Below, piece by piece: positions 976-63,311 of a stretch of 64,000 bases of DNA; within the stretch, counting starts at the first letter, position 1; each line of letters begins with the position of its first letter. Source of the DNA: an uncultured Acidimicrobiaceae bacterium (GTDB lineage: Bacteria > Actinomycetota > Acidimicrobiia > Spongiisociales > ZC4RG35); assembly GCA_964474055.1 (NCBI GenBank), contig CAYYRT010000407.1:1110-65109 (forward strand), read 5' to 3'. Below the pieces are notes generated by a model. It did no database searches. It was not told the DNA's origin and saw only the letters and a list, made by a program, of their open reading frames with translations. The translations under genes and the position numbers were made by a program.

Positions 976-1102
976 CGTCGCGGTTGTTACCCGCCGCGCA
1001 AACGTTGCACTGATTCACCAAGCGTTAAGTTTCTACTTTAATTCGCTATTTTATCGCGGTCAACGCTGATGGGAACGCGTCCGCGCAGATTTCCGTAGAA
1101 GA

Positions 1103-1122
1103 TGGAAAGGATTGCCCAATCC
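1103..1122. promoter_or_regulatory. Inverted repeat GGATTG-CC-CAATCC (within TGGAAAGGATTGCCCAATCC) about 88 bp upstream of the sigma-54 -24 element. Candidate enhancer (UAS).
   Basis: Perfect 6-bp arms with a 2-bp spacer, read directly from the sequence. Resembles the repeat at 44281-44298 upstream of the second sigma-54 promoter. Confidence 0.3.
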
Positions 1123-1202
1123 GTGTAGCGAAAGACCCCGAGAAATGATCGCGATTTTGTATTGTATTCAGTGAGTTAACTGCGTCTCGTCTGGTTCCGG
1201 CT

Positions 1203-1218
1203 TGGCACCGTGCTTGCT
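1203..1218 (+). promoter_or_regulatory. Sigma-54 (RpoN) -24/-12 promoter TGGCAC-N5-TTGCT driving operon 1.
   Basis: Exact match to the consensus TGGCAC N5 TTGCW at 1203-1218 in a lower-GC intergenic stretch, directly upstream of the first operon gene. Expected chance frequency in this window is about 0.1. Confidence 0.55.
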
Positions 1219-1233
1219 CCATCAGGGGCACGC

Positions 1234-2604
1234 ATGCTTCGGATCTTCCGGCACTATGTCTCGGGACTCGCGCTTGTCCTCTTCATGGGGGACATCGCGG
1301 TCATTTTCGCTGCTTCGTACGTCACCGAGCTCTCCGCAGTGTGGCCGGGCTATGGGCACTTCGTGTTCCGCACGCTAGAGATTAGCTTTGTAATTACCTT
1401 CATCCTCTACCTGGGCGATCTCTATCAGCCCCGCCAGGTGCTCGGACGTCGGGAGCTAATGGCCCGTGTCCTGACCTACCTGGCGACCGCGGCTATGGTC
1501 GTGGCGGCCGTCGGCTTCGCGGTCCCACCCCTGCGTCTGAGCCGCTCGGCCTTCCTCGGAATATTCCTGCTTACCACGCCAGGCATCATGATCTGGCGCG
1601 CCGCGCTTCTGGGAGCCTGGTCGCAGCAGCAGCTGATGCTTCGAGTGCTCGTCCTGGGGACCGGTCAGGTCGGTCGTCTCATCGCCGGGCTCGAGCTGAC
1701 CAGCGCCAGGCCATTCCGGATCATTGGGTTTTTGGACGACGCCCCTGACGCCGCGGACATGCTGCCGGACGGTCACGTCTTGCTCGGGAAGATCCAGGAT
1801 CTGGACTCGCTCGTGGAGGAAACCCGCCCGGACATCGTGGTCATCGCGCAACTGGACCGACGGGGCTGCTTCCCCACCAAGGCGCTGCTGGAGTGCCGTC
1901 TCCGTGGCATCCGCGTCGAGGACTGGCCGACCTTCTACGAAAAGGCTGAGGGCAAGATCCTCGTGACGGCCGTGCGACCGAGTTGGCTGATCTTCTCTGA
2001 CGGTTTCGTCAAGACGCCTCGTACTGAAATCATCAAGCGCTTGTTCGACATCACTTTGGCCCTGGCTGGCCTGGTTCTGTCGATCCCCTTGATGCTCATC
2101 ACCGCGATCGCGATCAAGCTGGAGTCTCCCGGACCGATTCTCTACCGGCAGCCTCGGCTGGGCAAGAACGGGTGCGTGTTCATCCTGAACAAGTTCCGGT
2201 CGATGCGCCAGGATGCCGAGAAGGACACCGGGCCCGTTTGGAGCGGACAGCGAGACCCGCGGATCAACCGGGTGGGCCACGTCCTGCGGCGCGCTCGGCT
2301 AGACGAGCTGCCGCAACTCTTCAACGTGCTCGTCGGCCACATGAGCTTCATCGGGCCGCGCCCGGAACGCCCGGAGTTCGTCGCCGAGCTACAGAAGCGG
2401 ATCCCGTTCTACATGGAGCGCCTGGCCGTGAAGCCGGGTCTCACCGGATGGGCACAGGTGAAGTATCAGTACGGCTCCTCGGTAGACGACGCGATCGAGA
2501 AACTCCAGTACGACCTGTACTACATCAAGAATCTTTCATTGTTCCTAGATCTCCTGATTGTTCTTAACACAGTGCAGGTAGTTATCTTCGCCCGGGGGCG
2601 TTGA
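1234..2604 (+). CDS. Polyprenyl-phosphate sugar phosphotransferase (bacterial sugar transferase, WbaP/EpsB-like). Priming enzyme.
   Basis: N-terminal TM helices and a C-terminal catalytic domain with ...RLDELPQLFNVLVGHMSFIGPRPERPEF..KPGLTGWAQV. The ORF-track start GTG 1210 overlaps the sigma-54 promoter, so ATG 1234 (or 1285) is preferred. Confidence 0.8.
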   Translation: MLRIFRHYVSGLALVLFMGDIAVIFAASYVTELSAVWPGYGHFVFRTLEISFVITFILYLGDLYQPRQVLGRRELMARVLTYLATAAMVVAAVGFAVPPLRLSRSAFLGIFLLTTPGIMIWRAALLGAWSQQQLMLRVLVLGTGQVGRLIAGLELTSARPFRIIGFLDDAPDAADMLPDGHVLLGKIQDLDSLVEETRPDIVVIAQLDRRGCFPTKALLECRLRGIRVEDWPTFYEKAEGKILVTAVRPSWLIFSDGFVKTPRTEIIKRLFDITLALAGLVLSIPLMLITAIAIKLESPGPILYRQPRLGKNGCVFILNKFRSMRQDAEKDTGPVWSGQRDPRINRVGHVLRRARLDELPQLFNVLVGHMSFIGPRPERPEFVAELQKRIPFYMERLAVKPGLTGWAQVKYQYGSSVDDAIEKLQYDLYYIKNLSLFLDLLIVLNTVQVVIFARGR

Positions 2605-11471: not shown

Positions 11472-12685
11472 TGCGTATGCGCATTCTTATGCTCGCGCAC
11501 CGGATCCCGTATCCGCCGCATACCGGGGACAAGACGCGCGCCTTTCACATCGCGCGTCACCTGGCACGCCACCACGACCTGACGCTCGGCTTCCTCGTCG
11601 AGGAGCGAGCCGATCTTGACGAGCTCAACGGCCTACGGGAGGTCGTCCCTAACGTCGAGTTCGGGCGGCTCTGGAAGCCGTGGAGCCTGCTCAAAGGTCT
11701 CGTCGGACTGACCACCGGTGGGTCGATCAGCCTCCCGTACTTTCACTCGCGGAAGCTTGAGCGGCGCGTGACGCGCCGAGCCGCCGAGACCCCCTACGAT
11801 CTCGTCTACCTCTCCTCCACCCCGATGGCGCAGTACGCGCGCGCGCTCGGGGTGCCGGCGGTGATGGACTTCGTTGACGTGGACTCGGACAAGTGGCGCC
11901 AGTACGCCGAGCACAGCCGCCCGCCCCGGAGCTGGCTCTACCGGACCGAGGGTCGCCGACTCCAAGCCGCCGAGGCCGACATCGCACGCTGGGCGAATCT
12001 CTGCGTGCTCGCCACCAAGGCCGAGGAGACCCTGCTCCGCTCGTTCGCACCGTGGGCCCGCACCGCGGTGGTCACGAACGGCATCGCCCTCGACTACTAC
12101 AAGCCGGTCGAGCGCGAGAGCGTGCCCCCCGCCGTGATCTTCACCGGGGCCATGGACTATCTGCCCAACATTGACGCGGTCCGGCACTTCTGCGACGAGA
12201 TGTTGCCCCGGATCCGGCAGCGAGTTCCCGAGACGCGCTTCTACATCGTCGGGCTGAATCCTCCCGGGGAAGTCCGGCGCCTCGTCGACATCCCGGGGGT
12301 CGTGGTCACCGGCACGGTCCCGGATGTGCGGCCCTACTACGGCCGCGCCGCGGTCTGCGTGGCGCCGCTACGCATCGGCCGGGGCGTCCAGAACAAGGTT
12401 CTCCAGTCAATGGCGATGGGTGTGCCGGTGGTGGCCAGCAGCGTGGCCCAGCGGGGACTCGAGGCGGTGCCCGGCAAGCACCTGTACGTCGAGGACGACC
12501 CCATCGCGGTCGCCGATCGCGTCGTGTCGCTGCTGGCTTCGCCCGCAGCCGCCGCGGCCATGGGCCTTCAGGGGCGCGCGTTCGTCGAGTCACACCACTC
12601 CTGGGACGCCTCCTGCTCGCGCCTCGAAAGCATGCTCCTGACGCTCGCCAGGCCCGGCGCGCATCTCGCGCGGATGCCCGCATGA
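11471..12685 (+). CDS. Glycosyltransferase family 4, PEP-CTERM/EpsH1-system-associated sugar-transferase type.
   Basis: N-terminus MRILMLAHRIPYPPHTGDKTRAFH is the characteristic start of this family. GT4 C-terminal domain present. Confidence 0.8.
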   Translation: MRMRILMLAHRIPYPPHTGDKTRAFHIARHLARHHDLTLGFLVEERADLDELNGLREVVPNVEFGRLWKPWSLLKGLVGLTTGGSISLPYFHSRKLERRVTRRAAETPYDLVYLSSTPMAQYARALGVPAVMDFVDVDSDKWRQYAEHSRPPRSWLYRTEGRRLQAAEADIARWANLCVLATKAEETLLRSFAPWARTAVVTNGIALDYYKPVERESVPPAVIFTGAMDYLPNIDAVRHFCDEMLPRIRQRVPETRFYIVGLNPPGEVRRLVDIPGVVVTGTVPDVRPYYGRAAVCVAPLRIGRGVQNKVLQSMAMGVPVVASSVAQRGLEAVPGKHLYVEDDPIAVADRVVSLLASPAAAAAMGLQGRAFVESHHSWDASCSRLESMLLTLARPGAHLARMPA

Positions 12686-14577
12686 GCGTCCCCGTGCCCT
12701 TCCTTGAAGCGCAGGCGTTCTCCGTCATGGGCGGGCTCGCGCCCGCGCCGGCCCGCCCGGTCACGGGCGAGGCGCTTCGGGCGATGGCTAGGCGCGTGAT
12801 CCAGGAGCCGGGCGCCATCTGCGCAGGGGCCGAGCCGGTCGGTCTGTTCGGCTCCGGCCGGGCCCGGATCGAGCGCGGCGACGCGGTCTGGGTGGCCGCG
12901 GAAGCCGACCTGCTAAACCTGGACGAGCTGCGCGCCGTGGCCGGGCTCGACGAGGCGCAGGCCCAGGCCGGCCTGCTCTCGCGCCTGTACGAGATGGAGG
13001 GGCCTGCGTTCCTCCGGCGGCTGCGCGGCGCCTTCGCTGTGGCGCTGTGGGACCGGCGGCAGCGGGCTCTGCTCCTGGCCGTGGACCCCTTCGGGATGAG
13101 GCGTCTGTACTACGCGGCCGATGTCCGGGGTACCGCCTTCGCGTCGCGCCTGGCCGCGCTGCGGGCCGGCCTCGCCCAGGCAGCGCCCATCGAGCCGGCC
13201 GCCATCTTCAGCTATCTGAACTTCGGCTTCATTCCGGCGCCCGAGACGCCCTTCACCGGCATCCGCCGCGTGCCCCCCGGACACGTGTTCCACGTCCGTC
13301 AGGGCTACAGCAAGCTCGAGCCCTACTGGGACATGAGCTACCCGGAGGAGCGCCACCGGGAGGAACGCGCGGCGGCCAGCTTGTACCGGCTGAGCCACGA
13401 AGCGGTTCGCGAGGCGCTGGCGCAGTCGGATCCGAGCGAGATAGGCGCCTTCCTGAGTGGGGGGACCGACAGCAGCACGGTGGTCGGCCTGATGACCCGC
13501 ATCACGGGGGGGGCGGTCCGCGCGTTCTCGATCGGCTTCCACGAGGATCGTTACGACGAGCTGCAGTACGCGAAGCTGGCCGCGCGGGCTTTCGGCGCGA
13601 CCCATCACACGCGGATCATCAAACCCGACGACGCGCTCGCCGCGCTGCCGCGGCTCGTCGAGGCCTACGACGAGCCCTTTGGCAACAACTCCGCCATCGG
13701 GGTCTACTTCTGCGCGCGCTTGGCCCGCGAGTACGGGGTCTCCCGGCTCCTGGCTGGCGATGGGGGCGACGAGATCTTCGGCGGCAACGAGCGGTACCGC
13801 ACCGATCGCATCTTCGCCCGCTACTCGAGCCTGCCCGCCGCGCTCCGTCACGGATTGCTCGAGCCGGTGCTGCTCGGCCTGCCCGTCGGCGTGCCCGGCA
13901 TCCTGGGCCGGGCCCAGCGCTATATCCGCCGCGCCAACATCCCGAACCCGCGCCGGTTCTACTCCTACGAGTTCCACGTCGCCCAAAACGCGGTTGAGAT
14001 GCTGGAGCCGTCTTTCCTGCGGCAGGCGGCGGCCACGGGGCCGTGGGGCGTGCTCGAGGAGCACTTCGCCCGCGTCCAGGCCAGCTCCGAGCTCAACCGA
14101 CTGATGTACCTCGACCTCAAGCTCACGATCGGCGACAACGACCTCTTCAAGGTCACCCGTACGTCCGAGCTGGGCGGCGTCGAGGTGCGCTTCCCATTCC
14201 TGGACCGGCCGCTGGTCGAGTTCACCGGCACATTGCCGCCCGAGTTCAAGGTGCGTGGGCTCGAGAAGCGGTATCTGTTCAAGCGCTCGTTCCGCGGGCT
14301 CCTGCCGAAGGAGATCCTGGCCAAGCAGAAGCACGGCTTCGGCGTGCCCACGTCCGACTGGCTCCGGAGCCATCGGGGGATTCGCGAGATGGCGCGCGAC
14401 GTCCTGCTGGAGAGCCGGACCGCGGACCGTGGGTATTTCCGGCGCGGAGTTCTGGAGCGCCTGTTCGAGCAGCTCGTCGCGGACAGCACGCCGTTCTACG
14501 GGGACGTCCTCTGGACGCTCCTGATGCTCGAGCTCTGGCACCGCCGTCACGTAGACGGCTGCGGGCTCGGCGGATGA
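12682..14577 (+). CDS. Asparagine-synthetase-like amidotransferase lacking the N-terminal catalytic Cys (degenerate glutaminase domain).
   Basis: Synthetase-domain PP-loop AFLSGGTDSS and conserved AsnB C-terminal blocks are present. The N-terminus has no MCG, HRGPD or YNGEIYN motifs. ATGA overlaps on both sides. Confidence 0.75.
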   Translation: MSVPVPFLEAQAFSVMGGLAPAPARPVTGEALRAMARRVIQEPGAICAGAEPVGLFGSGRARIERGDAVWVAAEADLLNLDELRAVAGLDEAQAQAGLLSRLYEMEGPAFLRRLRGAFAVALWDRRQRALLLAVDPFGMRRLYYAADVRGTAFASRLAALRAGLAQAAPIEPAAIFSYLNFGFIPAPETPFTGIRRVPPGHVFHVRQGYSKLEPYWDMSYPEERHREERAAASLYRLSHEAVREALAQSDPSEIGAFLSGGTDSSTVVGLMTRITGGAVRAFSIGFHEDRYDELQYAKLAARAFGATHHTRIIKPDDALAALPRLVEAYDEPFGNNSAIGVYFCARLAREYGVSRLLAGDGGDEIFGGNERYRTDRIFARYSSLPAALRHGLLEPVLLGLPVGVPGILGRAQRYIRRANIPNPRRFYSYEFHVAQNAVEMLEPSFLRQAAATGPWGVLEEHFARVQASSELNRLMYLDLKLTIGDNDLFKVTRTSELGGVEVRFPFLDRPLVEFTGTLPPEFKVRGLEKRYLFKRSFRGLLPKEILAKQKHGFGVPTSDWLRSHRGIREMARDVLLESRTADRGYFRRGVLERLFEQLVADSTPFYGDVLWTLLMLELWHRRHVDGCGLGG

Positions 14578-17828: not shown

Positions 17829-19147
17829 TGCCAATTCGCGACCTGGGGCTTCTCATAACGGTGATGGTCCTGCTGCCGATATGCATCGTGAGGCCATGGA
17901 TTGGGGTGCTGGTCTGGTCCTGGCTCGGTTACATGAACCCGCATCGGCTCACGTGGGGGTTCGCGTATAGCGTTCCATTCTCGATGATGGTGGCGGTACT
18001 GACTTTGGTGGGATGCGTGTTCACGAGCGAGCGGCGGCCGTTCGTGTGGAGCCGCGAGGTGGTCGCCCTCATGACGCTGTGGCTGTGGTTCGGGATCACG
18101 ACGGTGTTCGCGGTCTATCCGGACACGGCCATGGCAAAGTTTGTCGAGTTTTCGAAGATCATGCTGATGGCGGTTCTCGTCGTGCCGCTCTTCCAGGACC
18201 GGCGCAAGCTGAGGATACTGTTTCTGGTCATCGCGGCGTCGCTCGGCTTCTATGGGGTAAAAGGCGGGCTCTTCGTCTTGCAGACGGGCGGAGAATGGCA
18301 AGTGTTGGGTCCGCCCGGTTCGTTTTTCGAGGCGAATACCGAGCTGGCGCTGGTCTTGAACATGGCCCTCCCGTTGTTGTTCTATCTGGCACGGGAGGAG
18401 TCCCACAAGTGGAGAAGACGTGGCTTGTGGGCGTCATTCCTTCTGACGCTACTTGCCATTCCCTTCACGTACTCGAGAGGTGGCGTGCTGGGCCTGGCGG
18501 TGGTCGTCACGATCCTGTTTTTGAGGGTGCGTCGACGCCTGGTCTGGATCCCAATCATCGCCGTCGGCCTGTTGGCGTTCGCGATCTTTACGCCCGAGAA
18601 ATGGGTGAGTCGAGTCCAGACCATCGAAGAGTACGAGGTTGACGAGTCCGCTCAGCTCAGGTTCATGTCATGGCGAGTGGCGATGATGATCGCAGCGGAC
18701 CGCCCCGTGCTAGGAGGGGGGTTCAAGGTCTTCACGGACCGCGCCACTTATGACATCTATCTTCCCGGATATCCGCGCGCGTTTGGCCACGATGCGCACA
18801 GTATCTACTTCAATCTGCTGGGTGAACACGGCTGGGTCGGGCTCGGGTTGTTCCTACTCCTGGTCGGATTCTCGATGTTGACCCTCCTCAGGATTCGGCG
18901 GCTGGCCAAGGCAAACCCCGAAGTGGCGTGGGCGGGCAACTATGCACATATGGTCCAGGCGAGCCTCGCGGCCTACCTGGTGACGGGAGCATTCATAAGC
19001 GTGGCATATTTCGATCTTGCGTATCAGCTTCTGGTGATGATTCCGGTTCTTCACGTGGTAGCAGTTCGGGAGGTCGCGGCCCGGCAGAGCGCGCCGGTTG
19101 CGCCTCCATTGCCAGGCGCGGCTCGCATTCCCGCAAGAGCCAAGTGA
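17828..19147 (+). CDS. O-antigen ligase / Wzy_C-domain membrane protein (putative polymerase or O-glycosylation ligase, exosortase-system type).
   Basis: About 11 TM helices, a periplasmic-loop block ..FTYSRGGVLGLAVVV.. and a C-terminal region typical of Wzy_C/RfaL-like proteins. Confidence 0.7.
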   Translation: MPIRDLGLLITVMVLLPICIVRPWIGVLVWSWLGYMNPHRLTWGFAYSVPFSMMVAVLTLVGCVFTSERRPFVWSREVVALMTLWLWFGITTVFAVYPDTAMAKFVEFSKIMLMAVLVVPLFQDRRKLRILFLVIAASLGFYGVKGGLFVLQTGGEWQVLGPPGSFFEANTELALVLNMALPLLFYLAREESHKWRRRGLWASFLLTLLAIPFTYSRGGVLGLAVVVTILFLRVRRRLVWIPIIAVGLLAFAIFTPEKWVSRVQTIEEYEVDESAQLRFMSWRVAMMIAADRPVLGGGFKVFTDRATYDIYLPGYPRAFGHDAHSIYFNLLGEHGWVGLGLFLLLVGFSMLTLLRIRRLAKANPEVAWAGNYAHMVQASLAAYLVTGAFISVAYFDLAYQLLVMIPVLHVVAVREVAARQSAPVAPPLPGAARIPARAK

Positions 19148-19148
19148 G

Positions 19149-21020
19149 ATGTGCGGCATCGCCGGTCTGCTCCGGTTGGATGGCGCCCCGGTGGACCCGG
19201 CGATTGTTCGGCGCATGACCGACATTCTGGCCCACCGCGGTCCGGACGGTGAGGGATTCCACGTGGACGGACCGGTGGGGCTCGGCCACCGGCGTCTCGC
19301 GATCATCGACCTGGCGGGGGGCCGTCAGCCGATGGCCACCGCCGATGGAGCGATCTGGATCACGTACAATGGCGAGATCTACAACTACCGCGAGATCCGG
19401 CGAGAGCTGGGCGGTCTCGGCTTCGATCTCCGCTCCGCCTCGGATACCGAGGTCATCCTCGCGGCCTACGAGGCCTGGGGAGTGGGGTGTCTGGGTCGCC
19501 TGCGGGGGATGTTCGCCTTCGCTATCTGGGATGGGCGGCGGCGGCGGATCTTCATGGCGCGGGATCGGGTCGGCATCAAGCCGCTGGTTTACGCCTGGGA
19601 TGGCCGGTGCCTGCGGTTCGCCTCGGAGATCAAAGCTCTTCTCGAGGATCCCGCCGTTTCCCGTGAGCTCGACTGGGGAGCCGTTCGGGACTATCTTACG
19701 CATCACTACGTCTCCGCGCCTCGGACCATCTTCCGCGGAATACAGAAGCTGCCGCCGGCATCGTATCTGCTCTGCTCGCTTGACGGCAGTGAGCCCAAGG
19801 TTGAGAGCTATTGGGACCTGCACATGGCGCCGGACGCGAGTCTCAGTGAGAGCGACTGGACTGAGCAGCTCGAGTACCTCCTGAACGAGACCGTCCAGCT
19901 CCATATGGTCAGCGACGTTCCGGTGGGTGCCTTCCTCAGCGGTGGGATCGATTCCAGTAGCGTGGTGGCCTGTATGGCCCGCGCATCCGCCGGTCCAGTG
20001 AAGACGTTCTCTATCGGTTTCGACGAGCAGAACTTCGACGAGCTACGGTACGCGCGCCTGGTCGCAAAACGGTACGGAACCGAGCACTTCGAGATGATCG
20101 TGAAGCCCGACGTGATGAGCGTCCTGCCCCGCCTGGCTTGGCAGTTTGACGAGCCATTCAGCGATGCCTCGGCGATCCCAACGTACTGCGTAGCGAAGGT
20201 CACTCAGGAGCATGTAACCGTTGCTCTCTCCGGCGACGGCGGCGATGAGAGCTTCGCCGGATACCGCCGCTATGCCCATGCGTTGGATCTGCATCGCCGG
20301 ATCGACCGGACGCCGGCTTCTCTCGCCAAGCCTCTACTCCGGTGGGCCGCCGCCCGGCGGAGCCCAGGGGCCCGGGGGCGCGAGTTCATGGCGCTGCTCG
20401 GCATGTCGCCACTGGACCGATATCACCGGATGATGACGTATCAGTCGGAGGAAACGCTGGCGGCCCTGTTGACGCCCGAAGCCACCGCAAACGTGGTGCT
20501 CGACGCGGGGTCGACGGGATTCGGGCGCCTGGCGGCCGCGGCGGGCACCGACGACTACCTTTCGATGCTTCAGTACATAGACGTCCACCACTACTTGCCC
20601 GGGGACATCCTGACCAAGGTGGACCGGACGAGCATGCTCACATCGCTCGAGGCCCGAGTGCCGCTGCTCGACCACGTGCTCATGGAACACGCGGCCCGTA
20701 TGCCCTCCGACGCCAAGCTCCGAGATGGGATGGGGAAGCACGTCCTGAAAGAAGCGATGCGACCTCACCTGCCGGCGGAGATCCTGGACCGTCAGAAGAT
20801 GGGGTTTGGTGTGCCTCTGGCTACGTGGTTCCGAAAGGACCTGAAGGACTTCGCGCGTGACCTTCTGGCGGATCACCGAACCCGACAACGAGGGATCCTG
20901 CGGCCCGACACCGTGAGTCACTTGTTGGATATACACATCACCGGGAACCGTGACTACTCGTCTCAGCTGTGGTCCTTCATCTGCCTCGAGCTCTGGTTTC
21001 GTACGTGGTGGGACAAGTAA
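19149..21020 (+). CDS. asnB: Asparagine synthetase (glutamine-hydrolysing) family amidotransferase.
   Basis: MCGIAG N-terminus, HRGPDGEG, RLAIIDL, YNGEIYNY and PP-loop AFLSGGIDSS. Confidence 0.85.
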   Translation: MCGIAGLLRLDGAPVDPAIVRRMTDILAHRGPDGEGFHVDGPVGLGHRRLAIIDLAGGRQPMATADGAIWITYNGEIYNYREIRRELGGLGFDLRSASDTEVILAAYEAWGVGCLGRLRGMFAFAIWDGRRRRIFMARDRVGIKPLVYAWDGRCLRFASEIKALLEDPAVSRELDWGAVRDYLTHHYVSAPRTIFRGIQKLPPASYLLCSLDGSEPKVESYWDLHMAPDASLSESDWTEQLEYLLNETVQLHMVSDVPVGAFLSGGIDSSSVVACMARASAGPVKTFSIGFDEQNFDELRYARLVAKRYGTEHFEMIVKPDVMSVLPRLAWQFDEPFSDASAIPTYCVAKVTQEHVTVALSGDGGDESFAGYRRYAHALDLHRRIDRTPASLAKPLLRWAAARRSPGARGREFMALLGMSPLDRYHRMMTYQSEETLAALLTPEATANVVLDAGSTGFGRLAAAAGTDDYLSMLQYIDVHHYLPGDILTKVDRTSMLTSLEARVPLLDHVLMEHAARMPSDAKLRDGMGKHVLKEAMRPHLPAEILDRQKMGFGVPLATWFRKDLKDFARDLLADHRTRQRGILRPDTVSHLLDIHITGNRDYSSQLWSFICLELWFRTWWDK

Positions 21021-22151: not shown

Positions 22152-24074
22152 GTGTGCGGCATCAACGGCGTTGTCTACACGGATCCGCGCCATCCCGTGG
22201 ATCGCGCCCTGCTACGTCGTCTCACCACGACGCTGGCCCACCGGGGACCGGATGCCGACGGCTTCTTCTGGGAAGAAGGCGCCGCCCTGGGCCACCGTCG
22301 GCTCAGTATCATCGACCTCTCCACTGGCGATCAGCCAATCTTCAACGAGGACGGCACCAAGGCGGTGGTCTTCAACGGCGAGATCTACAACTTCCACGAG
22401 CTGCGAGCCGATCTCACCGCGCTTGGCCATCGCTTCGCTACGGCTTCCGACACCGAAGTGCTCGTCCACGCCTGGGAGGAGTGGGGCGACGGGTTCGTGG
22501 CCCGGCTGCGAGGTATGTTCGCTTTCGCCCTCTGGGATCGCCGCCACCGCCGGCTCCTCCTGGCCCGCGACCGGGTGGGCAAGAAGCCGCTCTACTACAT
22601 CCACGATGAGGAGAGGCTGCTCTTCGGCTCGGAGTTGAAGGCCCTTCTCGGCGATCCGTCGGTGAAGCGAGCCGTCAATCTGGAGGTGCTGGACGACTAC
22701 CTCACCTTTGGCGCGGTGCCGGCCCCGCGCACGATCTACCAAGGTATCCAGCAGATCCTGCCGGCGCACTACCTGGTCTGGGAAGGTGGGCGGGTCCGCA
22801 CGACTGAGTACTGGGATCTCACGTATCGCTCCGGCCCGGCGCGCGGGGAAGCGGCCTGGTTGGAGGAGTTCGAGGACATCTTCAGCGAGGCGGTGCGGCT
22901 TCGCATGATTTCAGATGTACCGCTGGGCGCCTTTCTCTCCGGTGGCGTGGACTCGAGCGCGGTGGTGGCAGCGATGGCCGCCCAGGCCTCGCGGCCGGTC
23001 ATCACGACGAACGTCTCCTTCGCCGAAAGCGCCTTCGACGAGGCGTCCCACGCCCGGACCGTGGCCCGCGCGCTGAATACCGAGCACCATGAGCTCCTTG
23101 TCGAGCCGCGGGGCGCGGACATTCTTCCTGCACTGGTCTGGCATCTCGACGAGCCCTTTGCCGACTCCTCGGCGATGCCGACGTACTACGTCGCCCGCGC
23201 AGCTCGGCAGCGCGTGACGGTGGCCCTGTCTGGTGACGGTGGGGACGAGATCTTCGCAGGCTACCAGTGGCGCTACGGCTTGAACCTGGTCGAAGCGCGC
23301 CTCAGGCGGCTGATCCCGGGCCCGGTCCGCCGCAACCTGCTGGGTCCGCTCTCTACGGTGTGGCCCAAGGCGGACCGTCTGCCGCGCCCGCTGCGGTGGA
23401 AGTTCCTCCTGCGGAACCTAAGCCTCGAGGCCGAGCACGCCTACTTCCATGATATGAGCCTCTTCACGGCCGCCGATAAGCGGGGACTCTTGACCGATGG
23501 GTTCCAGCGCACGCTCAACGGTTACGATCCCTATCCCGCCTTCCAGAGACACTTTGACCGAGTACGCGGCGCCGATCACCTCAGCCGGCTTCTCTACGTG
23601 GATCTCAAGACCTGGCTGCCCAACGACATCCTGGTTAAGATGGATCGAATGGCTATGGCCAACTCCCTCGAGGTCCGGTCACCGCTCCTCGATCACAAAG
23701 TCATTGAGTTCGCCGCGACCCTGCCCTCGGAGCTCAAGTACCGCGGAACCACCTCGAAGTACTTGCTCAAGCGCTACACCGAGCGGCGGGTCCCGGCCTC
23801 GGCCGTCCACCGTCCGAAGATGGGCTTCTCCATACCGCTAGCGACCTGGCTGAGGCGCGAGCTACGTCCGACGGCGGAGCAGTTACTCCTCTCCGAGCGC
23901 GCGCTCGAGCGGGGCTATTTCCGACCGGCTCAGATCGGAGCGATGTGGGCGCGTCATCAGGACGGTAGCCACGACCACTCGCACCATCTGTGGGCGCTGA
24001 TGATGCTCGAGCTGTGGCACCGGCTCTTTGTCGATCAAGCGCCAACTCTGACCGCGCCGGATGCTGCGCGATGA
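22152..24074 (+). CDS. asnB: Asparagine synthetase (glutamine-hydrolysing) family amidotransferase.
   Basis: GTG start then CGINGVV, HRGPDADG, RLSIIDL, FNGEIYNF, PP-loop AFLSGGVDSS. Confidence 0.85.
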   Translation: MCGINGVVYTDPRHPVDRALLRRLTTTLAHRGPDADGFFWEEGAALGHRRLSIIDLSTGDQPIFNEDGTKAVVFNGEIYNFHELRADLTALGHRFATASDTEVLVHAWEEWGDGFVARLRGMFAFALWDRRHRRLLLARDRVGKKPLYYIHDEERLLFGSELKALLGDPSVKRAVNLEVLDDYLTFGAVPAPRTIYQGIQQILPAHYLVWEGGRVRTTEYWDLTYRSGPARGEAAWLEEFEDIFSEAVRLRMISDVPLGAFLSGGVDSSAVVAAMAAQASRPVITTNVSFAESAFDEASHARTVARALNTEHHELLVEPRGADILPALVWHLDEPFADSSAMPTYYVARAARQRVTVALSGDGGDEIFAGYQWRYGLNLVEARLRRLIPGPVRRNLLGPLSTVWPKADRLPRPLRWKFLLRNLSLEAEHAYFHDMSLFTAADKRGLLTDGFQRTLNGYDPYPAFQRHFDRVRGADHLSRLLYVDLKTWLPNDILVKMDRMAMANSLEVRSPLLDHKVIEFAATLPSELKYRGTTSKYLLKRYTERRVPASAVHRPKMGFSIPLATWLRRELRPTAEQLLLSERALERGYFRPAQIGAMWARHQDGSHDHSHHLWALMMLELWHRLFVDQAPTLTAPDAAR

Positions 24075-29973: not shown

Positions 29974-29990
29974 CCTTTGACGGGGGCGCT

Positions 29991-30254
29991 ATGGCTGGCA
30001 CTCACACCGCCGATCGAATCAAGGCGTTCATCCTCGATCACTTCCCCTTGGCTCGTGGGCGCTCGTTACGGAACGATGATCGTCTCTTGGAGAACGGTCT
30101 CCTCGACTCGCTGGGCGTTCTGGACCTCGTGGCCTACCTCGAGCGGGAGTTCCAGATGGTCGTCTCTGACGACGAATTGCTACCCGAGCATTTCGAAAGC
30201 ATCGATCGTCTCACCCGATTTGTCGACCGTAAGCGTGGCGGGACCGCACGATGA
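29991..30254 (+). CDS. Acyl carrier protein (phosphopantetheine-binding).
   Basis: 88 aa. ..ENGLLDSLGVLDLVAYLE.. carries the DSL phosphopantetheine attachment motif. Confidence 0.7.
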   Translation: MAGTHTADRIKAFILDHFPLARGRSLRNDDRLLENGLLDSLGVLDLVAYLEREFQMVVSDDELLPEHFESIDRLTRFVDRKRGGTAR

Positions 30255-36647: not shown

Positions 36648-36994
36648 GATATCGATACCGGCTTTCTCTCATCGGTGCGGTCCTCTGGAGCGTGTCCCTG
36701 ATACCAAGCGGCTACGTCGACGACAGGCCTCGAAGCGCGCAGGCCCAGGGCGCCCCCGGGCGGGAGCCGAGTCCCGGCTCGTCTCAGGATGCCGGTGTCT
36801 CCACCCCGCTCAACCCGACCGCTGGCGCCCACATGGACAGCTATGACTACGATAGGCGGAACCGCGTCATAGTCAGCACGAGCTACGGGGAGAGCCAGTT
36901 CCGGATGTGGGTCTGGAGGCCTGATGACAGTGTCTGGAGGGAACTGCCCGTCGACACCCGCCCGACCGAGCTGTGGGCCTGGGGCTATCGGTGA
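36644..36994 (+). CDS. Hypothetical small secreted protein.
   Basis: Signal-peptide-like MRYRYRLSLIGAVLWSVSLIPSG. ATGA overlap with the upstream gene. Confidence 0.4.
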   Translation: MRYRYRLSLIGAVLWSVSLIPSGYVDDRPRSAQAQGAPGREPSPGSSQDAGVSTPLNPTAGAHMDSYDYDRRNRVIVSTSYGESQFRMWVWRPDDSVWRELPVDTRPTELWAWGYR

Positions 36995-42592: not shown

Positions 42593-42717
42593 CTCTCATC
42601 TTACACGAGCCTTGGCGGCCGCTTTTCACTTCCCCGCGCGGATCGGAGGATCACGGTGGAAGCGTGCTAGACTGAGCGCGCCGTCCAAGCCTGCTGCCCG
42701 GCAAGGTGGCGTCACAT

Positions 42718-43140
42718 ATGGCGGACAAGCTCGAACCGAGCCCTCATCTCTACGAGGAAGACGACCTGCGTCATCTTCTCGCCAGGGAGGTGCTGCGTTC
42801 GACGCGCTACCAGGATTTCCTCACGCTATGCCTCATCCGGGTCGCGTCGGCGGAGCCCTCCCTCCGGGACGCGATCGCTCGACAGGTCGCCGAGATGCTG
42901 CGATCCACTGACCTGGTCGGGAGCATCGGTGAGGATATCGCGGTGTTGCTCGTTCACACCCCGGATACGGAGGCGATCATGATCGCCTCCCGAATCCGTG
43001 ACCGAATCGACCGCCCGTCCGTGCCTCCCTCGGCCGGCGCGGTCGTCCTCCACATTGGGCTGGCGTGCTTTCCGGTCGACGGCACGAGCGATGACGCACT
43101 CCTGGCGTGTGCCCAAGCTCGCCTGGAGACGGCGCGGTGA
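42718..43140 (+). CDS. Stand-alone degenerate GGDEF-domain protein (I-site RSTD retained, A-site GEDIA). Putative c-di-GMP receptor.
   Basis: ..RSTDLVGSIGEDIAVLLVHT...RIRDRI......LHIGLACFPVDG..ALLACAQARL matches the C-terminal half of GGDEF. AAGGTGG RBS upstream. Confidence 0.55.
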   Translation: MADKLEPSPHLYEEDDLRHLLAREVLRSTRYQDFLTLCLIRVASAEPSLRDAIARQVAEMLRSTDLVGSIGEDIAVLLVHTPDTEAIMIASRIRDRIDRPSVPPSAGAVVLHIGLACFPVDGTSDDALLACAQARLETAR

Positions 43141-43861: not shown

Positions 43862-44280
43862 CCTCCGGAGTGTAAGACTTACACCCGAGGTCGAAAAGTT
43901 CCCACTAACCGGGAAGGGGGAAGACGGATGCGTTTGACCCCCAACCCTGCCTGCGTCAAGAATCCTCTTACTCCAGCTTGAGGTCCCATATGTGCAAATG
44001 AGCTGTGCATACAACGCGGCCCGCCGTGTTCGGAGTAAATCGTCTCCTGAGTCGACAGGTTGATCGTCGCCTTAACTTACTGATAAACATGAGAGAGTTT
44101 GCGGGAGCGCGTTTCGATCGAGGGATGCACTCTCGTGTCACCGTGAAGCGGCCATCACATTCCTTCACGGTCCACGCAATAGTTGCGGTAGATGACCTGA
44201 GACTCAAGTATCGGAATAATATACGTTTATGTTCTCACCGGCCCTGTGGCGTCAGCAACATTCAGATCGTCCGTCAGAAA

Positions 44281-44310
44281 GGAATGGGATTTCCCATTAT
44301 GTGAATGGAA
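44281..44310. promoter_or_regulatory. Inverted-repeat cluster AATGGGA-TT-TCCCATT plus CCATT-N5-AATGG about 90 bp upstream of the sigma-54 -24 element. Candidate enhancer (UAS) for a bEBP.
   Basis: Perfect 7-bp arms with a 2-bp spacer at 44283-44298 and an overlapping second IR to 44308. Same distance and similar sequence to the repeat at 1103-1122. Confidence 0.35.
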
Positions 44311-44378
44311 TTGCCGGGCTATGGACTGAGTCTCGCCTGTTAGAACGGGCACTTGAACGGACTGGGTACTTTGCGGGG

Positions 44379-44394
44379 TGGCACCTAATTTGCT
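44379..44394 (+). promoter_or_regulatory. Sigma-54 (RpoN) -24/-12 promoter TGGCAC-N5-TTGCT upstream of the enhancer-binding-protein gene.
   Basis: Exact consensus match 63 bp upstream of ATG 44457, at the 3' end of a low-GC 600-bp leader. Confidence 0.6.
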
Positions 44395-44456
44395 TAATCT
44401 AATCACGCAACTCCTATGGCCCACCTTTCATACCCAGAGTAACGGAAGACGAAGCG

Positions 44457-45847
<1,391 letters not shown>

Positions 45848-45851
<4 letters not shown>

Positions 45852-47437
45852 GCGACGCGCTGCGCGGCCTGGACGACGGCGATGCCGCTCCGCGCGGGGG
45901 CTCGGCCCTCGACCGCCTCCGGCAGGCCTGGAGCCGGCGCAAGTGGCTCGGCATCCTGGTGGTCCTGCTGCCCCTCACCGCGGGCGTCAGCGTCATCATG
46001 GCCCTGCCCGATCTCTACCAGTCCACCGCCCTCGTCATGATCGAGCGGCAGCAGGTGCCCGAGGCCTTCGTCCGCCCGACCATCACCAGCCAGCTCGAGA
46101 TCCGCCTCCAGACGATCAGCCAGGAGATCCTGAGCCGCTCGCGGCTCGAGGCCCTGATCCAGCGATTCAATCTCTATCCCGAGATGCGGACGCCCGCGTC
46201 GAGCGAGCAGGCGGTGAACCGGCTCCGGACCGACATCCGCCTGGAGCTGAAGTCCAGCGACAACAACCGCGCCGGCACCACGACCGCCTTCGCGCTGTCG
46301 TACCGGGGGCGCGATCCCCAGACCGTGGCGCAGGTGACCAATACCCTGGCTTCCTTCTACATCGAGGAGAACCTCAAGGCGCGCGAGCGGCAGGCGACGG
46401 GCACCGCGGAGTTCCTGCGGGTCCAGCTCGCGGACGCCAAGAGGCGCCTCGACGAGCAGGAAGCGCGGGTGAGCGAGCTGCGCCGCCGCTACATCGGCCA
46501 GCTCCCGCAGCAGATGCAGGGCAATCTCGCCACGCTGGACTCCCTCACCCAGCAGCTCCGGATCAACAGCGACAACCAGGTGCGGCTCGTCGAGCGGCGA
46601 GACCAGCTCGCGGCCCAGCTCACGCAGGTGCGCGCCATGTCCGGCGATGAGACCGATGAGATGCGGCTGGCCCGGTTCAAGCGGGAGCTGGCCACGCTCC
46701 GCATCAAGTACACGGATCTCTGGCCGGACATCATCCGGCTCAAGGACGAGATCGCCACACTGGAGAAGCAGATGGCCGAGCCGAAGCCCAAGAGTACGGC
46801 CAAGACGCCCCTGCCTCCCAGCCCGGAGGTCATGCGGGTGCAGGAGATGCTGGGAATGGCCGAGACCGAGCTGAAGCTGGCCAAGCAGGACGAGCAGCGG
46901 ATCCGCCGCGCGATCGACGTGTACCAGACACGAGTCGACAACGCGCCGCGGAGCGAGCAGGAGTTCCAGGAGATGACCCGGGACTACCAGGCGACCCGGG
47001 AGCTCTACCAGACGCTCTCCAAGCGCTACGACGAGGCCCTGCTCGCCGAGAGCATGGAGCAGCGGCAGAAGGGCGAGCAGTTCCGGGTGCTCGATTCCGC
47101 ATTGCCCTCGTCCGTGCCCACCGCGCCCCGGCGGTCGCGGCTGCTGCTGGCCTGCATCGCGCTGTCGCTGGCCCTCGGGGCCGGGGCGGTGGTGCTCGCC
47201 GAGATGCTCGACACCTCGTTCCACTCGACCGACGACCTGCGCGCCTACACCACCGTCCCCGTGCTGGTCAGCATCCCGCGGATCCTGACCCAGTCGGACT
47301 CGCGCCGGGAGCGGTGGCGGTTCCGCTTCGCGACGGTGGGGGTGCTGGTGTGCCTCGTGGTGGTCGCGGGCTCCTGCTACATCTTCGCCTACGGCAACGA
47401 GCAGCTCGCCCAGCTCCTCTCACGCGGAAAGGCCTGA
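45848..47437 (+). CDS. Polysaccharide chain-length determinant (Wzz/GumC-like, PEP-CTERM-locus subfamily).
   Basis: N-terminal TM ..WLGILVVLLPLTAGVSVIMAL.., long periplasmic coiled-coil and a C-terminal TM ..LLACIALSLALGAGAVVLA... ATGA overlap with the regulator gene. Confidence 0.75.
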
Positions 47438-47446
47438 GCGGGCGCG

Positions 47447-48508
47447 ATGGCCATCTACCTCGACTTCTACGGGCTGGAGCGGGCTCCGTTCGGGCCCACC
47501 GCGGACCCGGACTTTCTCTACCTGACCCCCGGACACAAGGAGGCGCTCGCCCAGCTCCTCTACGCCATCCAGGAGAAGAAGGGCTTCATCCTGGTGACCG
47601 CCGAGGTCGGGATGGGCAAGACCACGCTGCTGCAGGCCCTCCGCCACGAGCTCGACAGCACCACCGCGGTGGCCTACGTCTCGAACTCGATGCTGCCCTT
47701 CCCCGGCATCCTCGAGTACATGCTCGAGGAGTTCGAGATCCAGAAGCCCGGCGAGTCCCACGCGCAGCGGCTGGTGGTGCTCCAGAACTTCCTGCTGGAG
47801 CGGCACCGCACCGGCCAGAGCACGGTGCTGATCCTCGACGAGGCGCAGAATCTCTACCCGCAGACGCTCGAGCAGATCCGGCTGCTGTCGAACTTCGAGA
47901 CGACCAAGGAGAAGATCCTCCAGATCGTGCTCGTCGGCCAGCCGGAGCTCCTGGCCCGCCTCGAGCTGCCCGAGCTGCGCCAGCTCAAGCAGCGCATCGG
48001 GATCCTCTGCACGATCCCGGCGATGACCAGCTCGGCGAGCCGGAACTACATCCGGACGCGGCTCCGGCTGGCCGGTGCCCGGGACCTGGGCATCTTCACG
48101 GAGGAGGCGCTGGCCCGCATCTCGTCGCAGGCCGGCGGCATCCCCCGTGTGGTCAACACGGTCTGCGATCATTGCCTGCTGATCGGGTACGCCGATCAGA
48201 CGCGGCGCATCGACGCGGACATCGTGGACCAGGCCCTCTCCTATCTGCACGGCGGCGCGCCCATGCGCTCGCGGCGGCGCGTGCGCGAGCACGACCGCCA
48301 GCTCTCGTCGCCGCGCGTGGCCCGGCGGCGGGCCCGCAGCCGCATGAGCTCCCTCGGCTGGGGTGTGCTCGGCGTGTCCACCGCGGTGGTGGCCGCCGTG
48401 GTCGCGCTCATCTGGACGCATCCCGAGCTCGTGACGGAAGCGCTCCATGTCTCCTCCGAGCACCTCGAGGATCTCGCGCGCGGGCTGCGCTCGCTGGTCG
48501 GCCTGTGA
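47447..48508 (+). CDS. ExeA/GspA-like AAA ATPase (putative secretion ATPase of PEP-CTERM loci).
   Basis: MAIYLDFYGL..PF start, Walker A ..VTAEVGMGKTTLL.., Walker B ..VLILDEAQNL.., ..LQIVLVGQPEL.. Confidence 0.75.
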   Translation: MAIYLDFYGLERAPFGPTADPDFLYLTPGHKEALAQLLYAIQEKKGFILVTAEVGMGKTTLLQALRHELDSTTAVAYVSNSMLPFPGILEYMLEEFEIQKPGESHAQRLVVLQNFLLERHRTGQSTVLILDEAQNLYPQTLEQIRLLSNFETTKEKILQIVLVGQPELLARLELPELRQLKQRIGILCTIPAMTSSASRNYIRTRLRLAGARDLGIFTEEALARISSQAGGIPRVVNTVCDHCLLIGYADQTRRIDADIVDQALSYLHGGAPMRSRRRVREHDRQLSSPRVARRRARSRMSSLGWGVLGVSTAVVAAVVALIWTHPELVTEALHVSSEHLEDLARGLRSLVGL

Positions 48509-49563
48509 GCAAGTTCCAGAAGGCGCTCGAGCAGGCCCAGCGCGACCGGGCTCTCCGCCTGCGCCCGACCCCCGCCCCGCCCAGGGAGGCCCCCGCGGAG
48601 ACCGAGGAGCATGCGGCCCCGGCCCCGGCCGAGCCGCAGAACGGGCATCCGGCCGAATCGCGCGCGGCGTGGCCGGCCCCCCCGCCGCCCCCCGCTCCGC
48701 GCCCGCAGCCGCCGAGCCAGGCGCGGCCGCCGCGGCGCCGGCGCCCGGTCGGGATCACGGAGGCGGTGGATGACCACATGGTGAGCCTCGTGGCCCCGTC
48801 GAGCCTGGAGGCCGAGCAGTACCGGGCCCTGCGCCACGTGGTCGAGCAGAAGCGCCGGACCGAGAACATGTCGATCATCGCGGTCTCGAGCCCGGCGGGC
48901 GGTGACGGCAAGACCACGACCGCGATCAACCTGGCCGGCGCCCTGGCCCAGGCGCCCGACGCGCGGGTGCTGCTGGTCGAGGCGGATCTCCGTCGCCCGT
49001 CCATCGGCGCGCTGCTCGGCCTGGGCGATCCGAACGCGCCCGGCCTGGTCCATGGGATCCTCGACCCCCGCCTCACCCTGGCCGACATCGTCCAGCCGCT
49101 CACCATGTTCAACCTGAGCGTGGTCGTGGCGGGCCAGACGCCGCCGAGCCCGTACGAGGTGCTCAAGTCGCCCCGCCTCGCGGAGCTGCTCGACGAAGCG
49201 CGACGCGACTACGACTTCGTGATCCTCGACACGCCGCCCCTGGTGCCGGTGCAGGATTATCGCGTGATCGCCCGCCTGGTGGACGGCATGGTCCTGGTGG
49301 TCGCGGCGCATCGTACCCCGCGGCCGATGCTGGAGGCCGCGTTCGAGATCCTCGATCCCGCCCGCATGATCGGGCTGGTGTTCAACGGCTACGACCACTT
49401 GCTGGCCGGCCGGAGCATGGGCTATTACGACGGCTACAACGGGCCTCGCTCGGGCCACCGGGGCTCCGCCGCCGGCAGTCCCGGCACTCGACTGGGCCGT
49501 CTCCTGCGCCGCGGGGGCGGGTCCCGGACCAGGAGCCGGCGCGCCGGAGACTCCGAGCCGTGA
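48505..49563 (+). CDS. BY-family protein tyrosine autokinase (EPS / PEP-CTERM locus type).
   Basis: GTG start giving MSKFQKALEQA (typical N-terminus). Pro-rich linker, Walker A SPAGGDGKTT, A' VLLVEADLRRP, Walker B DFVILDTPP, Tyr cluster MGYYDGYNG. Confidence 0.75.
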   Translation: MSKFQKALEQAQRDRALRLRPTPAPPREAPAETEEHAAPAPAEPQNGHPAESRAAWPAPPPPPAPRPQPPSQARPPRRRRPVGITEAVDDHMVSLVAPSSLEAEQYRALRHVVEQKRRTENMSIIAVSSPAGGDGKTTTAINLAGALAQAPDARVLLVEADLRRPSIGALLGLGDPNAPGLVHGILDPRLTLADIVQPLTMFNLSVVVAGQTPPSPYEVLKSPRLAELLDEARRDYDFVILDTPPLVPVQDYRVIARLVDGMVLVVAAHRTPRPMLEAAFEILDPARMIGLVFNGYDHLLAGRSMGYYDGYNGPRSGHRGSAAGSPGTRLGRLLRRGGGSRTRSRRAGDSEP

Positions 49564-50918: not shown

Positions 50919-50931
50919 CCCCGGTCCCGCC

Positions 50932-52098: not shown

Positions 52099-52105
52099 GC
52101 CGGCC

Positions 52106-53041: not shown

Positions 53042-53043
53042 GC

Positions 53044-60552: not shown

Positions 60553-60556
<4 letters not shown>
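58436..60556 (+). CDS. Heparinase II/III-like protein (polysaccharide-lyase-like, alginate-lyase / heparinase II/III family).
   Basis: 706 aa. N-terminal alpha/alpha-toroid-like region (..WELSRHQWLVRLAQA..) and C-terminal ..GHGHADLLAL.. / ..HSTIEVDG.. blocks characteristic of Hepar_II_III_N and C domains. Confidence 0.6.

Positions 60557-63311
<2,755 letters not shown>

Follow-up and report, generated by a model that had tools for sequence, protein, structure and literature searches.

A probable shared two-dyad enhancer module at two predicted sigma-54 promoters of a polysaccharide locus, one of them upstream of an NtrC-family regulator gene

The 64,000-nucleotide stretch of contig CAYYRT010000407.1 (assembly GCA_964474055.1) examined here, referred to below as the window, carries two large polysaccharide gene clusters. 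We found that each of these clusters begins behind a match to the sigma-54 promoter pattern TGGCAC-N5-TTGCT, and that both promoters share an upstream element organized around the dyad GGAA-N6-TTCC. The first promoter (site 1) precedes the gene of a priming glycosyltransferase, and the second (site 2) precedes the gene of an NtrC-family enhancer-binding protein at 44457 to 45851, which opens the second cluster. As judged from the sequence and its conservation, these are very probably functional sigma-54 promoters served by a common two-dyad enhancer module, and the NtrC-family protein is the candidate that we favor, with less confidence, as the protein binding it. The class of mechanism is already known. 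What is new is the DNA motif GGAA-N6-TTCC, which is not previously described, together with the lineage, the degenerate receiver domain of the regulator and the very short leader of the first operon.

It was noted that the sigma-54 pattern TGGCAC-N5-TTGCT (TGGCACNNNNNTTGCT) occurs exactly twice when both strands of the 64-kb window are considered, as an initial annotation of this DNA had claimed. Shuffled versions of the window contained a mean of 0.02 matches, and none of 100 shuffles contained two. Allowing one mismatch brought in two extra sites, both of them intragenic. The two exact matches were located in intergenic DNA (976-1233 and 43862-44456) with a GC content of 52% compared to 67% for the window, each on the same strand as its downstream gene, which also agrees with the initial annotation. 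No further sigma-54 promoters were found inside the clusters, the other weak matches in the window being either intragenic or scoring at most 11.7. Transcription from such promoters is established to start 12 nt past the C of the -12 GC, and the transcription start sites (TSSs) were predicted at this usual position. The two promoters are as follows.

1203 to 1218, plus strand: predicted sigma-54 promoter 1, TGGCACCGTGCTTGCT, with the -24 GG at 1204-1205 and the -12 GC at 1216-1217; predicted TSS at about 1229.
44379 to 44394, plus strand: predicted sigma-54 promoter 2, TGGCACCTAATTTGCT, which precedes the enhancer-binding regulator gene at 44457 as first proposed; predicted TSS at about 44405 and predicted leader of about 52 nt.

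We then considered the conservation of these sites among relatives. Querying metagenomes with the glycosyltransferase gave 80 loci, and those with 63-81% protein identity could be aligned upstream of the gene, yielding 57 distinct site-1 sequences. The site-2 comparison comprised 14 distinct regulator-upstream regions, drawn from loci L001, L002 and L161-L172 and from the window. The closest relative loci belonged to genome bins named Methylomirabilota/Rokubacteria, and many soil metagenome contigs matched as well. TGGCAC-N5-TTGC was kept at the orthologous position in the 57 site-1 and the 14 site-2 regions, and because of this retention both sites behave as genuine sigma-54 promoters, with sigma-54 dependence and the two start positions predicted from sequence.

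The initial annotation had also described a related element upstream of each promoter, and both copies were confirmed as written, TGGAAAGGATTGCCCAATCC at 1103-1122 and GGAATGGGATTTCCCATT at 44281-44298, with centres about 90 nt upstream of the -24 element. Position matrices of 19 nt and 38 nt were trained on the site-1 relatives only, with the window excluded, and were compared to a null of 300 first-order Markov shuffles of the window. The best match of the 19-nt matrix on either strand of the window was the site-2 copy at 44281, whose score of 21.3 falls in the upper half of the training scores and was attained in 0.3% of the shuffled windows. With the 38-nt matrix, only 44281 (25.8) and 1103 (20.0) scored at least 8 in the window, and the shuffle maximum was 16.5 (n = 300). 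Measured from the right half of the element, the -24 GG lies 89-93 nt away at site 1 and 87-91 nt away at site 2. At both promoters of the window the module was found 98-101 nt upstream of the GG, as it was in three other contigs possessing both genes; a fifth two-promoter pairing (L173/L001) consists of two separate records joined via an identical protein. Across 0.97 Mb of fetched related loci, 76 of the 79 matrix matches scoring at least 15 had a sigma-54 site about 100 nt downstream. Because of the cross-detection between sites, the fixed spacing of 87-93 nt and this co-occurrence, the proposal of a shared element at enhancer distance on both promoters holds.

The symmetry of the element differs from the one first described. 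The initial annotation had called it palindromic, and its arms (GGATTG/CAATCC; AATGGGA/TCCCATT) were fully complementary in only five of the 57 site-1 sequences and in one of the 14 site-2 sequences, namely the window itself. With arms that are specific to the window rather than conserved, these local palindromes were rejected as the functional unit. The conserved symmetry was found to be the dyad GGAA-N6-TTCC(CAWT), centred at about -118, whose GGAA/TTCC was intact in 14 of 14 site-2 sequences and had at least three of four positions complementary in 47 of the 57 site-1 sequences. A weaker second dyad lies 21 bp (two helical turns) downstream, at about -97; its form is GGGA-N6-TTCT at site 1, and at site 2 it becomes TGAA-N6-TGCC. 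The information profile of the 57 site-1 sequences was characterized by five conserved blocks separated by unconserved DNA: CGCAGATTTC; GGAA-N6-TT(T/G)CCCAATCAG running directly into GGAG-N6-TTCTCCG; AAATCAA-N4-TTA; TGGCAC-N5-(C)TTGCTCC; and cGcCATG. The alignment of the 14 site-2 regions read gcGTCAGaAaGGAA-N6-TTCCCAwtaagTGAA-N6-TgCC, then tAGATCAnnnAcTTG, then TGGCAC-N5-TTGCTttt. The putative upstream activating sequences (UAS-A and UAS-B), the sites resembling those of integration host factor (IHF) and the adjoining blocks are located in the window as follows.

1084 to 1093, plus strand: conserved block CGCAGATTTC, upstream of the dyads at site 1, among the most conserved outside the promoter in the 57 sequences.
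1104 to 1121, plus strand: putative UAS-A of promoter 1, GGAA-AGGAT-TGCCCAATC, centre about -119; consensus of the relatives GGAA-N6-TT(T/G)CCCAATC.
1124 to 1139, plus strand: putative UAS-B of promoter 1, TGTAGCGAAAGACCCC, centre about -98, about 21 bp downstream of UAS-A; degenerate in the window, GGGAG-N5/6-TTCTCCG in the relatives.
1166 to 1178, plus strand: IHF-like site of promoter 1, ATTCAGTGAGTTA, centre about -57; two mismatches to WATCAR-N4-TTR.
44271 to 44280, plus strand: block (G)CGTCAGAAA, immediately adjoining UAS-A of promoter 2 and conserved in the 14 regulator-upstream regions.
44281 to 44298, plus strand: putative UAS-A of promoter 2, GGAA-TGGGAT-TTCCCATT, centre about -117.5; top match of the site-1-trained matrix.
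44302 to 44315, plus strand: putative UAS-B of promoter 2, TGAA-TGGAAT-TGCC, centre about -96.5, 21 bp past UAS-A; consensus of the relatives TGAA-N6-TgCC.
44343 to 44355, plus strand: IHF-like position of promoter 2, GAACGGGCACTTG, centre about -56; GATCAR-N4-TTG in the relatives, with the block tAGATCAnnnAcTTG conserved.

At site 1, UAS-A of the window scored 20.0 with the 38-nt matrix and only 9.7 with the 19-nt matrix, the latter because its spacer is 1 nt short. The exact IHF core WATCAR-N4-TTR was encountered in 25 of the 57 site-1 relatives, 31-33 nt from the -24 GG, where 0.11 would be expected from shuffles. No site-2 sequence matched the strict IHF consensus, the first position being G, and both IHF-like sites of the window have two mismatches each. 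In most relatives an IHF-like site stands at about -57, and the layout resembles that of a textbook IHF-assisted enhancer, in which IHF may take part as suggested by these motifs. It was also noted that the conserved blocks CGCAGATTTC (1084-1093) and GCGTCAGAAA (44271-44280) stand at different distances, the site-2 block being about 10 nt (one helical turn) nearer UAS-A, and that neither fits the dyad. We also considered whether another GGAA-N6-TTCC dyad, the third, lies 21 bp upstream of UAS-A, and rejected this on reading the aligned sequences, where CGCAGATTTC does not fit the dyad.

A third complete module was observed in one further locus (L037, 1870-1984, minus strand), comprising CGCAGAATTTC, GGTAGGAGGTTACCCAATCAG, an IHF-like site and TGGCAC-N5-TTGCT, with about 75 nt between promoter and ATG. 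It precedes a glucose-1-phosphate cytidylyltransferase gene (TIGR02623, 365.6 bits compared to a cut-off of 300.25). This copy indicates that the module may serve a wider polysaccharide regulon.

The regulator gene and the cluster that it opens were then characterized, with the following coordinates.

44457 to 45851, plus strand: NtrC-family enhancer-binding protein with a degenerate receiver, an AAA+ domain with GAFTGA and a Fis-type helix-turn-helix (HTH); PF00158, PF25601, PF02954 and a weak PF00072.
45848 to 63311, plus strand: polysaccharide cluster 2, translationally coupled to the regulator, as assigned from family matches and an ATGA overlap.

The translation of the regulator contains the Walker A motif GETGTGK, GAFTGA and the Walker B motif FLDEIG, and it matches PF00158 with E = 2.4e-73 and PF02954 with E = 2.6e-11 at residues 416-450. 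Its relatives comprise more than 120 protein clusters at 81-93% identity; GAFTGA was present in 120 of 120 orthologs, and the HTH was near-invariant. In an alignment to Aquifex NtrC4 (PDB 3dzd), T10 and P11 take the place of the acidic pair DD of the receiver and Ala that of the conserved Thr, and Asp54 and Lys102 are retained. Among orthologs matched by the pattern search, DD is likewise replaced, by residues of the Ala-x-Pro/Glu type. The regulator thus holds an incomplete set of the residues that define a phosphorylatable receiver (acidic pair, Asp54, Thr/Ser and Lys). Because the receiver is without the metal-binding acidic pair, classical kinase control of this protein appears unlikely. 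No kinase gene adjoins the regulator in the window or in L161-L172, and none of PrsK type was found among the window open reading frames (ORFs) scanned.

The regulator gene is not a solitary target of promoter 2: we determined that it opens a second polysaccharide operon, in which an ATGA stop/start overlap at 45848-45851 joins it to the next gene. Cluster 2 encodes a TIGR03007 chain-length determinant, a TIGR03015-like ATPase, a tyrosine kinase and a second priming transferase, followed in our inventory by a GT2 transferase, a methyltransferase, AsnB-like amidotransferases, GT4 transferases and a heparinase-like protein. The gene order is kept in L161-L172, with an SCO4226-like gene, 600-680 nt of intergenic DNA, the regulator, a GNVR protein and the ATPase. 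The predicted leader of the regulator measures 50-97 nt, and within 44395-44456 the blocks tATGG...TTCAcA and acGgaAga..GCaATG are conserved in relatives. No Rfam family (for example a c-di-GMP riboswitch) was found, either in the whole window at the gathering score or in the 595-nt regulator intergenic region at E = 1.

Additional conserved sequences were observed farther upstream of the regulator. Directly after the stop codon of the SCO4226-like gene lies a perfect 15-bp palindrome, GTGTAAGACTTACAC at 43870-43884, of which TGTAA-N3/4-TTACA is kept in L161, L162 and L168. It resembles protein-binding sites such as a TyrR box or PrsR motif 1 and not a hairpin, because the loop would be 1 nt. 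All 14 regulator-upstream regions share a direct repeat, TGTGCA-N7-TGTGCA, at 43991-44009, as well as GTCAnCaTGaA...CACATTCCTTC...GCAAc-nG-TTGCGA with a 5-1-5 palindrome at 44135-44188. These last two blocks are 215-415 nt upstream of the predicted TSS and are probably inputs from other regulators.

The first cluster is composed entirely of co-directional genes and spans about 39 kb in total.

1234 to 2604, plus strand: TIGR03013 priming glycosyltransferase of the XrtA/PEP-CTERM system, first gene of cluster 1; 483.5 bits compared to a cut-off of 393.35.
2648 to 39993, plus strand: the rest of polysaccharide cluster 1.

Its genes encode a Wzc-like kinase, sugar-nucleotide enzymes, an XrtA-system deacetylase, a FemAB-like protein, stp1/2/3 glycosyltransferases, AsnB-like amidotransferases, GlmS, an O-antigen-ligase-like protein, an acyl-CoA ligase and a decarboxylase. 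Nine XrtA-associated families scored above their cut-offs (TIGR03013, TIGR03006, TIGR03019, TIGR03087, TIGR03088, TIGR04063, TIGR03097, TIGR03098 and TIGR03007). No exosortase match was found among the ORFs scanned, which are a subset of those in the window, and the source contig extends past the window. Two internal gaps of 277 nt (29974-30250) and 325 nt (36648-36972) contained no sigma-70-like promoter or intrinsic terminator, and the 39-kb cluster may be read as a single transcript.

The leader of this first operon is very short. Only 15 nt separate the TTGCT of promoter 1 from the ATG at 1234, and the predicted leader is 5 nt in the window and 3-14 nt, with a median of 9, across the 57 sequences. 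A Shine-Dalgarno-like sequence was present in only 11 of the 57 site-1 sequences, and no sigma-70-like promoter was found on the plus strand before gene 1. The initial annotation had offered two readings, a leaderless transcript or a true start farther downstream. A downstream start codon was rejected, given coding-type conservation of the N-terminus and a Met18 that is not conserved: more than 100 glycosyltransferase orthologs are called at 456 aa, the N-terminus M-L/F-R-I-F-R-H-Y is conserved with variability of 0.24, 0.06 and 0.46 by codon position, and Met18 of the window is Leu, Phe or Ala in orthologs. With the start at 1234 correct, the very short leader would therefore be the conserved state, so that the first of the two readings stands in the form of a near-leaderless operon-1 transcript, as predicted from sequence. 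A conserved predicted leader of 3-14 nt behind a sigma-54 promoter is an unusual feature, and a literature search on leaderless sigma-54 transcripts returned nothing specific.

Based on these observations, we propose a switch in which the two polysaccharide operons would be turned on together from sigma-54 promoters with a common enhancer module. The NtrC-family protein would bind the dyads as dimers and assemble its ATPase ring, the DNA would bend so that the ring reaches the closed complex of the sigma-54 holoenzyme, and the promoter would be opened by ATP hydrolysis acting through the GAFTGA loop. The activator would be the protein encoded at 44457-45851, and its position as the first gene of operon 2 would create a positive feedback loop that also fires operon 1. 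What sets its activity would probably be the amount of the protein itself, or else a ligand or a partner protein. The message of operon 1 would lack a Shine-Dalgarno sequence and begin only 3-14 nt ahead of its start codon. This model as a whole, with the 44457 protein as the most likely activator, seems moderately probable to us, and we likewise lean toward its central step, in which that protein binds the dyads and hence both autoregulates and co-activates. The module lies directly upstream of the regulator gene in 14 of 14 orthologous loci, and no other enhancer-binding protein was found among the window ORFs scanned; autoregulation by this protein would be the most economical reading.

Several observations weigh against this proposal. 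The recognition helix of paralogous activators is closely similar to that of the window regulator, in a comparison that includes SYKAMLYKIR, and a paralog B gene lies about 1 kb from the L037 module, on the opposite strand. Upstream of more distant regulator homologs (59-68% identity) the element did not rise above background, and the same was noted for the paralogs (41-46%). The window copies are themselves off consensus, both in the spacer of the site-1 UAS-A and in the two mismatches of each IHF-like site. The two promoter classes have different UAS-B sequences, and at site 2 this dyad contributes only about 4.5 bits. The enhancer model leaves the conserved CGCAGATTTC block unexplained. Finally, no rpoN or IHF gene turned up in the window, where no search was aimed at them.

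The similarity among recognition helices opens the most serious alternative, which we nevertheless consider unlikely: a true sigma-54 enhancer bound by another activator (paralog B or C), with the 44457 regulator as a cascade target or as a protein sharing the sites. Paralog B has 41-45% identity to the regulator and is conserved in Methylomirabilota bins, and a further paralog C exists. The HTH of paralog B, RWNRAEAARLLKISYKAMLYKIR, is close to that of the window regulator, and its location near the third module copy also fits. The paralog B gene has no module or sigma-54 site upstream, as would be expected for a top-level regulator. Precedents are available for both arrangements, with SypG and LuxO sharing overlapping sites at qrr1 (PMC10162802), and with cascades such as that from BerB to BerA (PMC9684580). 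However, paralog B was found beside a module in only one of seven paralog B loci, whereas every orthologous locus of the window regulator has the module directly upstream of it. A pure cascade would also require other sigma-54 targets for the 44457 protein, and the only two sites in the window carry the same element.

An assignment of the upstream blocks to a regulator that is independent of sigma-54, such as a repressor or a nucleoid protein, with activator sites elsewhere, appears very unlikely. It would give a role to conserved blocks that the enhancer model does not use, namely CGCAGATTTC at 1084-1093, TGTGCA-N7-TGTGCA at 43991-44009, GCAAT-AG-TTGC at 44176-44186 and the palindrome at 43870-43884. 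The far-upstream blocks are, however, present at site 2 only, and the dyads stand at a fixed distance of about 100 nt from the -24 element in both promoter classes and in the third gene context. A pair of sites on one helical face with an IHF-type site after them is moreover the standard enhancer layout. A chance origin, with fortuitous -24/-12 matches next to unrelated AT-rich inverted repeats, could draw on the fact that the two palindromes first described differ in their centres and are not conserved as palindromes, but it has a negligible probability and is already refuted by the conservation data, both regions being conserved across dozens of genomes where flanking intergenic DNA is not, with 0 of 100 shuffles giving two exact promoters and 0 of 300 reaching the matrix scores.

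The sigma-54 switch run by the 44457 protein can be extended into a more ambitious form, which we regard as quite improbable. Here a master switch specific to Methylomirabilota/Rokubacteria for envelope polysaccharides would consist of a non-phosphorylatable activator that amplifies itself from its own sigma-54 promoter and serves, via one dyad motif, at least three kinds of polysaccharide operon (the priming-transferase cluster, its own cluster and the CDP-glucose pathway gene), with a small-ligand input such as c-di-GMP from small GGDEF proteins and a near-leaderless main operon.

We compared the arrangement in the window to known systems. The initial annotation had termed the regulator PrsR-like, and this identity was rejected, as the protein scored 348.9 bits against TIGR02915 (cut-off 502.6) and the generic NifA, AtoC and NtrC models scored the same or higher. 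There is also no adjacent PrsK, and TTTACA occurs in the window only at 68 and 40091, near neither promoter. In the PrsR system, motif 1 is a 17-mer ending in TTTACA, an element found in Proteobacteria only, and PrsK is in tandem or nearby in 12 of 13 genomes (Haft et al. 2006, PMC1569441). Dependence of pepA on RpoN has been shown in Aquincola (PMC9850573). The PrsK/PrsR/PrsT system and the window are alike in having a sigma-54 promoter in an XrtA/PEP-CTERM polysaccharide context and an NtrC-family activator with a Fis-type HTH. The PEP-CTERM box likewise places a short activator motif, repeated in some cases, ahead of the promoter; about 63 nt separate its last copy from the sigma-54 motif there, compared to about 62 nt from UAS-B to the -24 element here. 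In contrast to the PrsR system, the window has no adjacent PrsK or PrsT, the receiver is degenerate and the motif is GGAA-N6-TTCC; instead of PrsK, the neighbors of the regulator are the SCO4226-like gene upstream and the chain-length determinant downstream. The targets also differ, being the priming glycosyltransferase operon and the regulator's own operon here and single PEP-CTERM protein genes there.

The syp locus of Vibrio fischeri resembles the window in that an activator encoded inside a polysaccharide locus, SypG, serves several sigma-54 promoters via one motif (Ray et al. 2013, as cited in PMC10162802). SypG is under the control of a SypF phosphorelay, whereas the window regulator has a receiver without the acidic pocket, and the two systems belong to different phyla. 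The SypG enhancer motif TTCTCANNNTGMDWN had no match in the window even with one mismatch and was rejected.

NtrC at glnAp2 and ZraR at zraP/zraSR act from tandem same-face dyads about 100-140 nt upstream of the -24/-12 elements, with positive autoregulation. The window shares with them the tandem dyads and a regulator gene that lies in the operon predicted to be activated, and it differs from them in that they have an adjacent cognate kinase, other DNA motifs and leaders of normal length. The polysaccharide promoters on which FleQ and VpsR act are of the sigma-70 type. Together with BerB/BerA, these two proteins place polysaccharide under an enhancer-binding-type protein that is independent of classical phosphorylation, with diguanylate-cyclase-type genes nearby, and the likeness here is a small GGDEF ORF two genes upstream of the regulator. 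BerB is a c-di-GMP-binding activator of a polysaccharide pathway (Bep, Burkholderia cenocepacia) that acts via BerA (PMC9684580). The motif tests gave no indication that the window regulator binds c-di-GMP.

Control of the cell exterior by sigma-54, including exopolysaccharide, is an established theme (PMC3162934), which the present locus would carry into a new phylum, with a regulator that falls outside the PrsR family. Regulation in these Methylomirabilota/Rokubacteria soil lineages is essentially unstudied, and they have no cultured representatives. The combination of dyad, spacing, bend site and promoter, together with a candidate regulator, offers a testable cis-regulatory code for large polysaccharide loci. 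The motif may also be used to predict regulon members in metagenome bins, and the L037 gene represents one extra member type found in this way.

From this examination, several further features of the window and its relatives were noted. Small stand-alone GGDEF ORFs of 85-165 aa recur beside enhancer-binding protein genes in the relatives' phylum, at 42706-43140 in the window, 794-1225 in L161, 823-1080 in L166 and 4734-5231 in L032, where the ORF is located between paralog B and a third activator; these ORFs are a possible link to c-di-GMP. Upstream of site 1, the ORF at 145-975 has no family match, and its last residues, ...ATLSLFATF, are typical of the C-termini of outer-membrane beta-barrels; at its position relatives possess a gene of 432-598 aa without a Pfam match. 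Five AsnB-like amidotransferase paralogs are distributed across both clusters (12682-14577, 19098-21020, 22152-24074, 54320-56179 and 61401-63311), all of them below the TIGR03108 cut-off. Lastly, loci with glycosyltransferase homologs at 53-58% identity (L146-L160) carry GGTACG-N4-TTGC with an upstream palindrome resembling GCGCAA-N3-TTGCGC, and this promoter flavor suggests another activator in more distant lineages.

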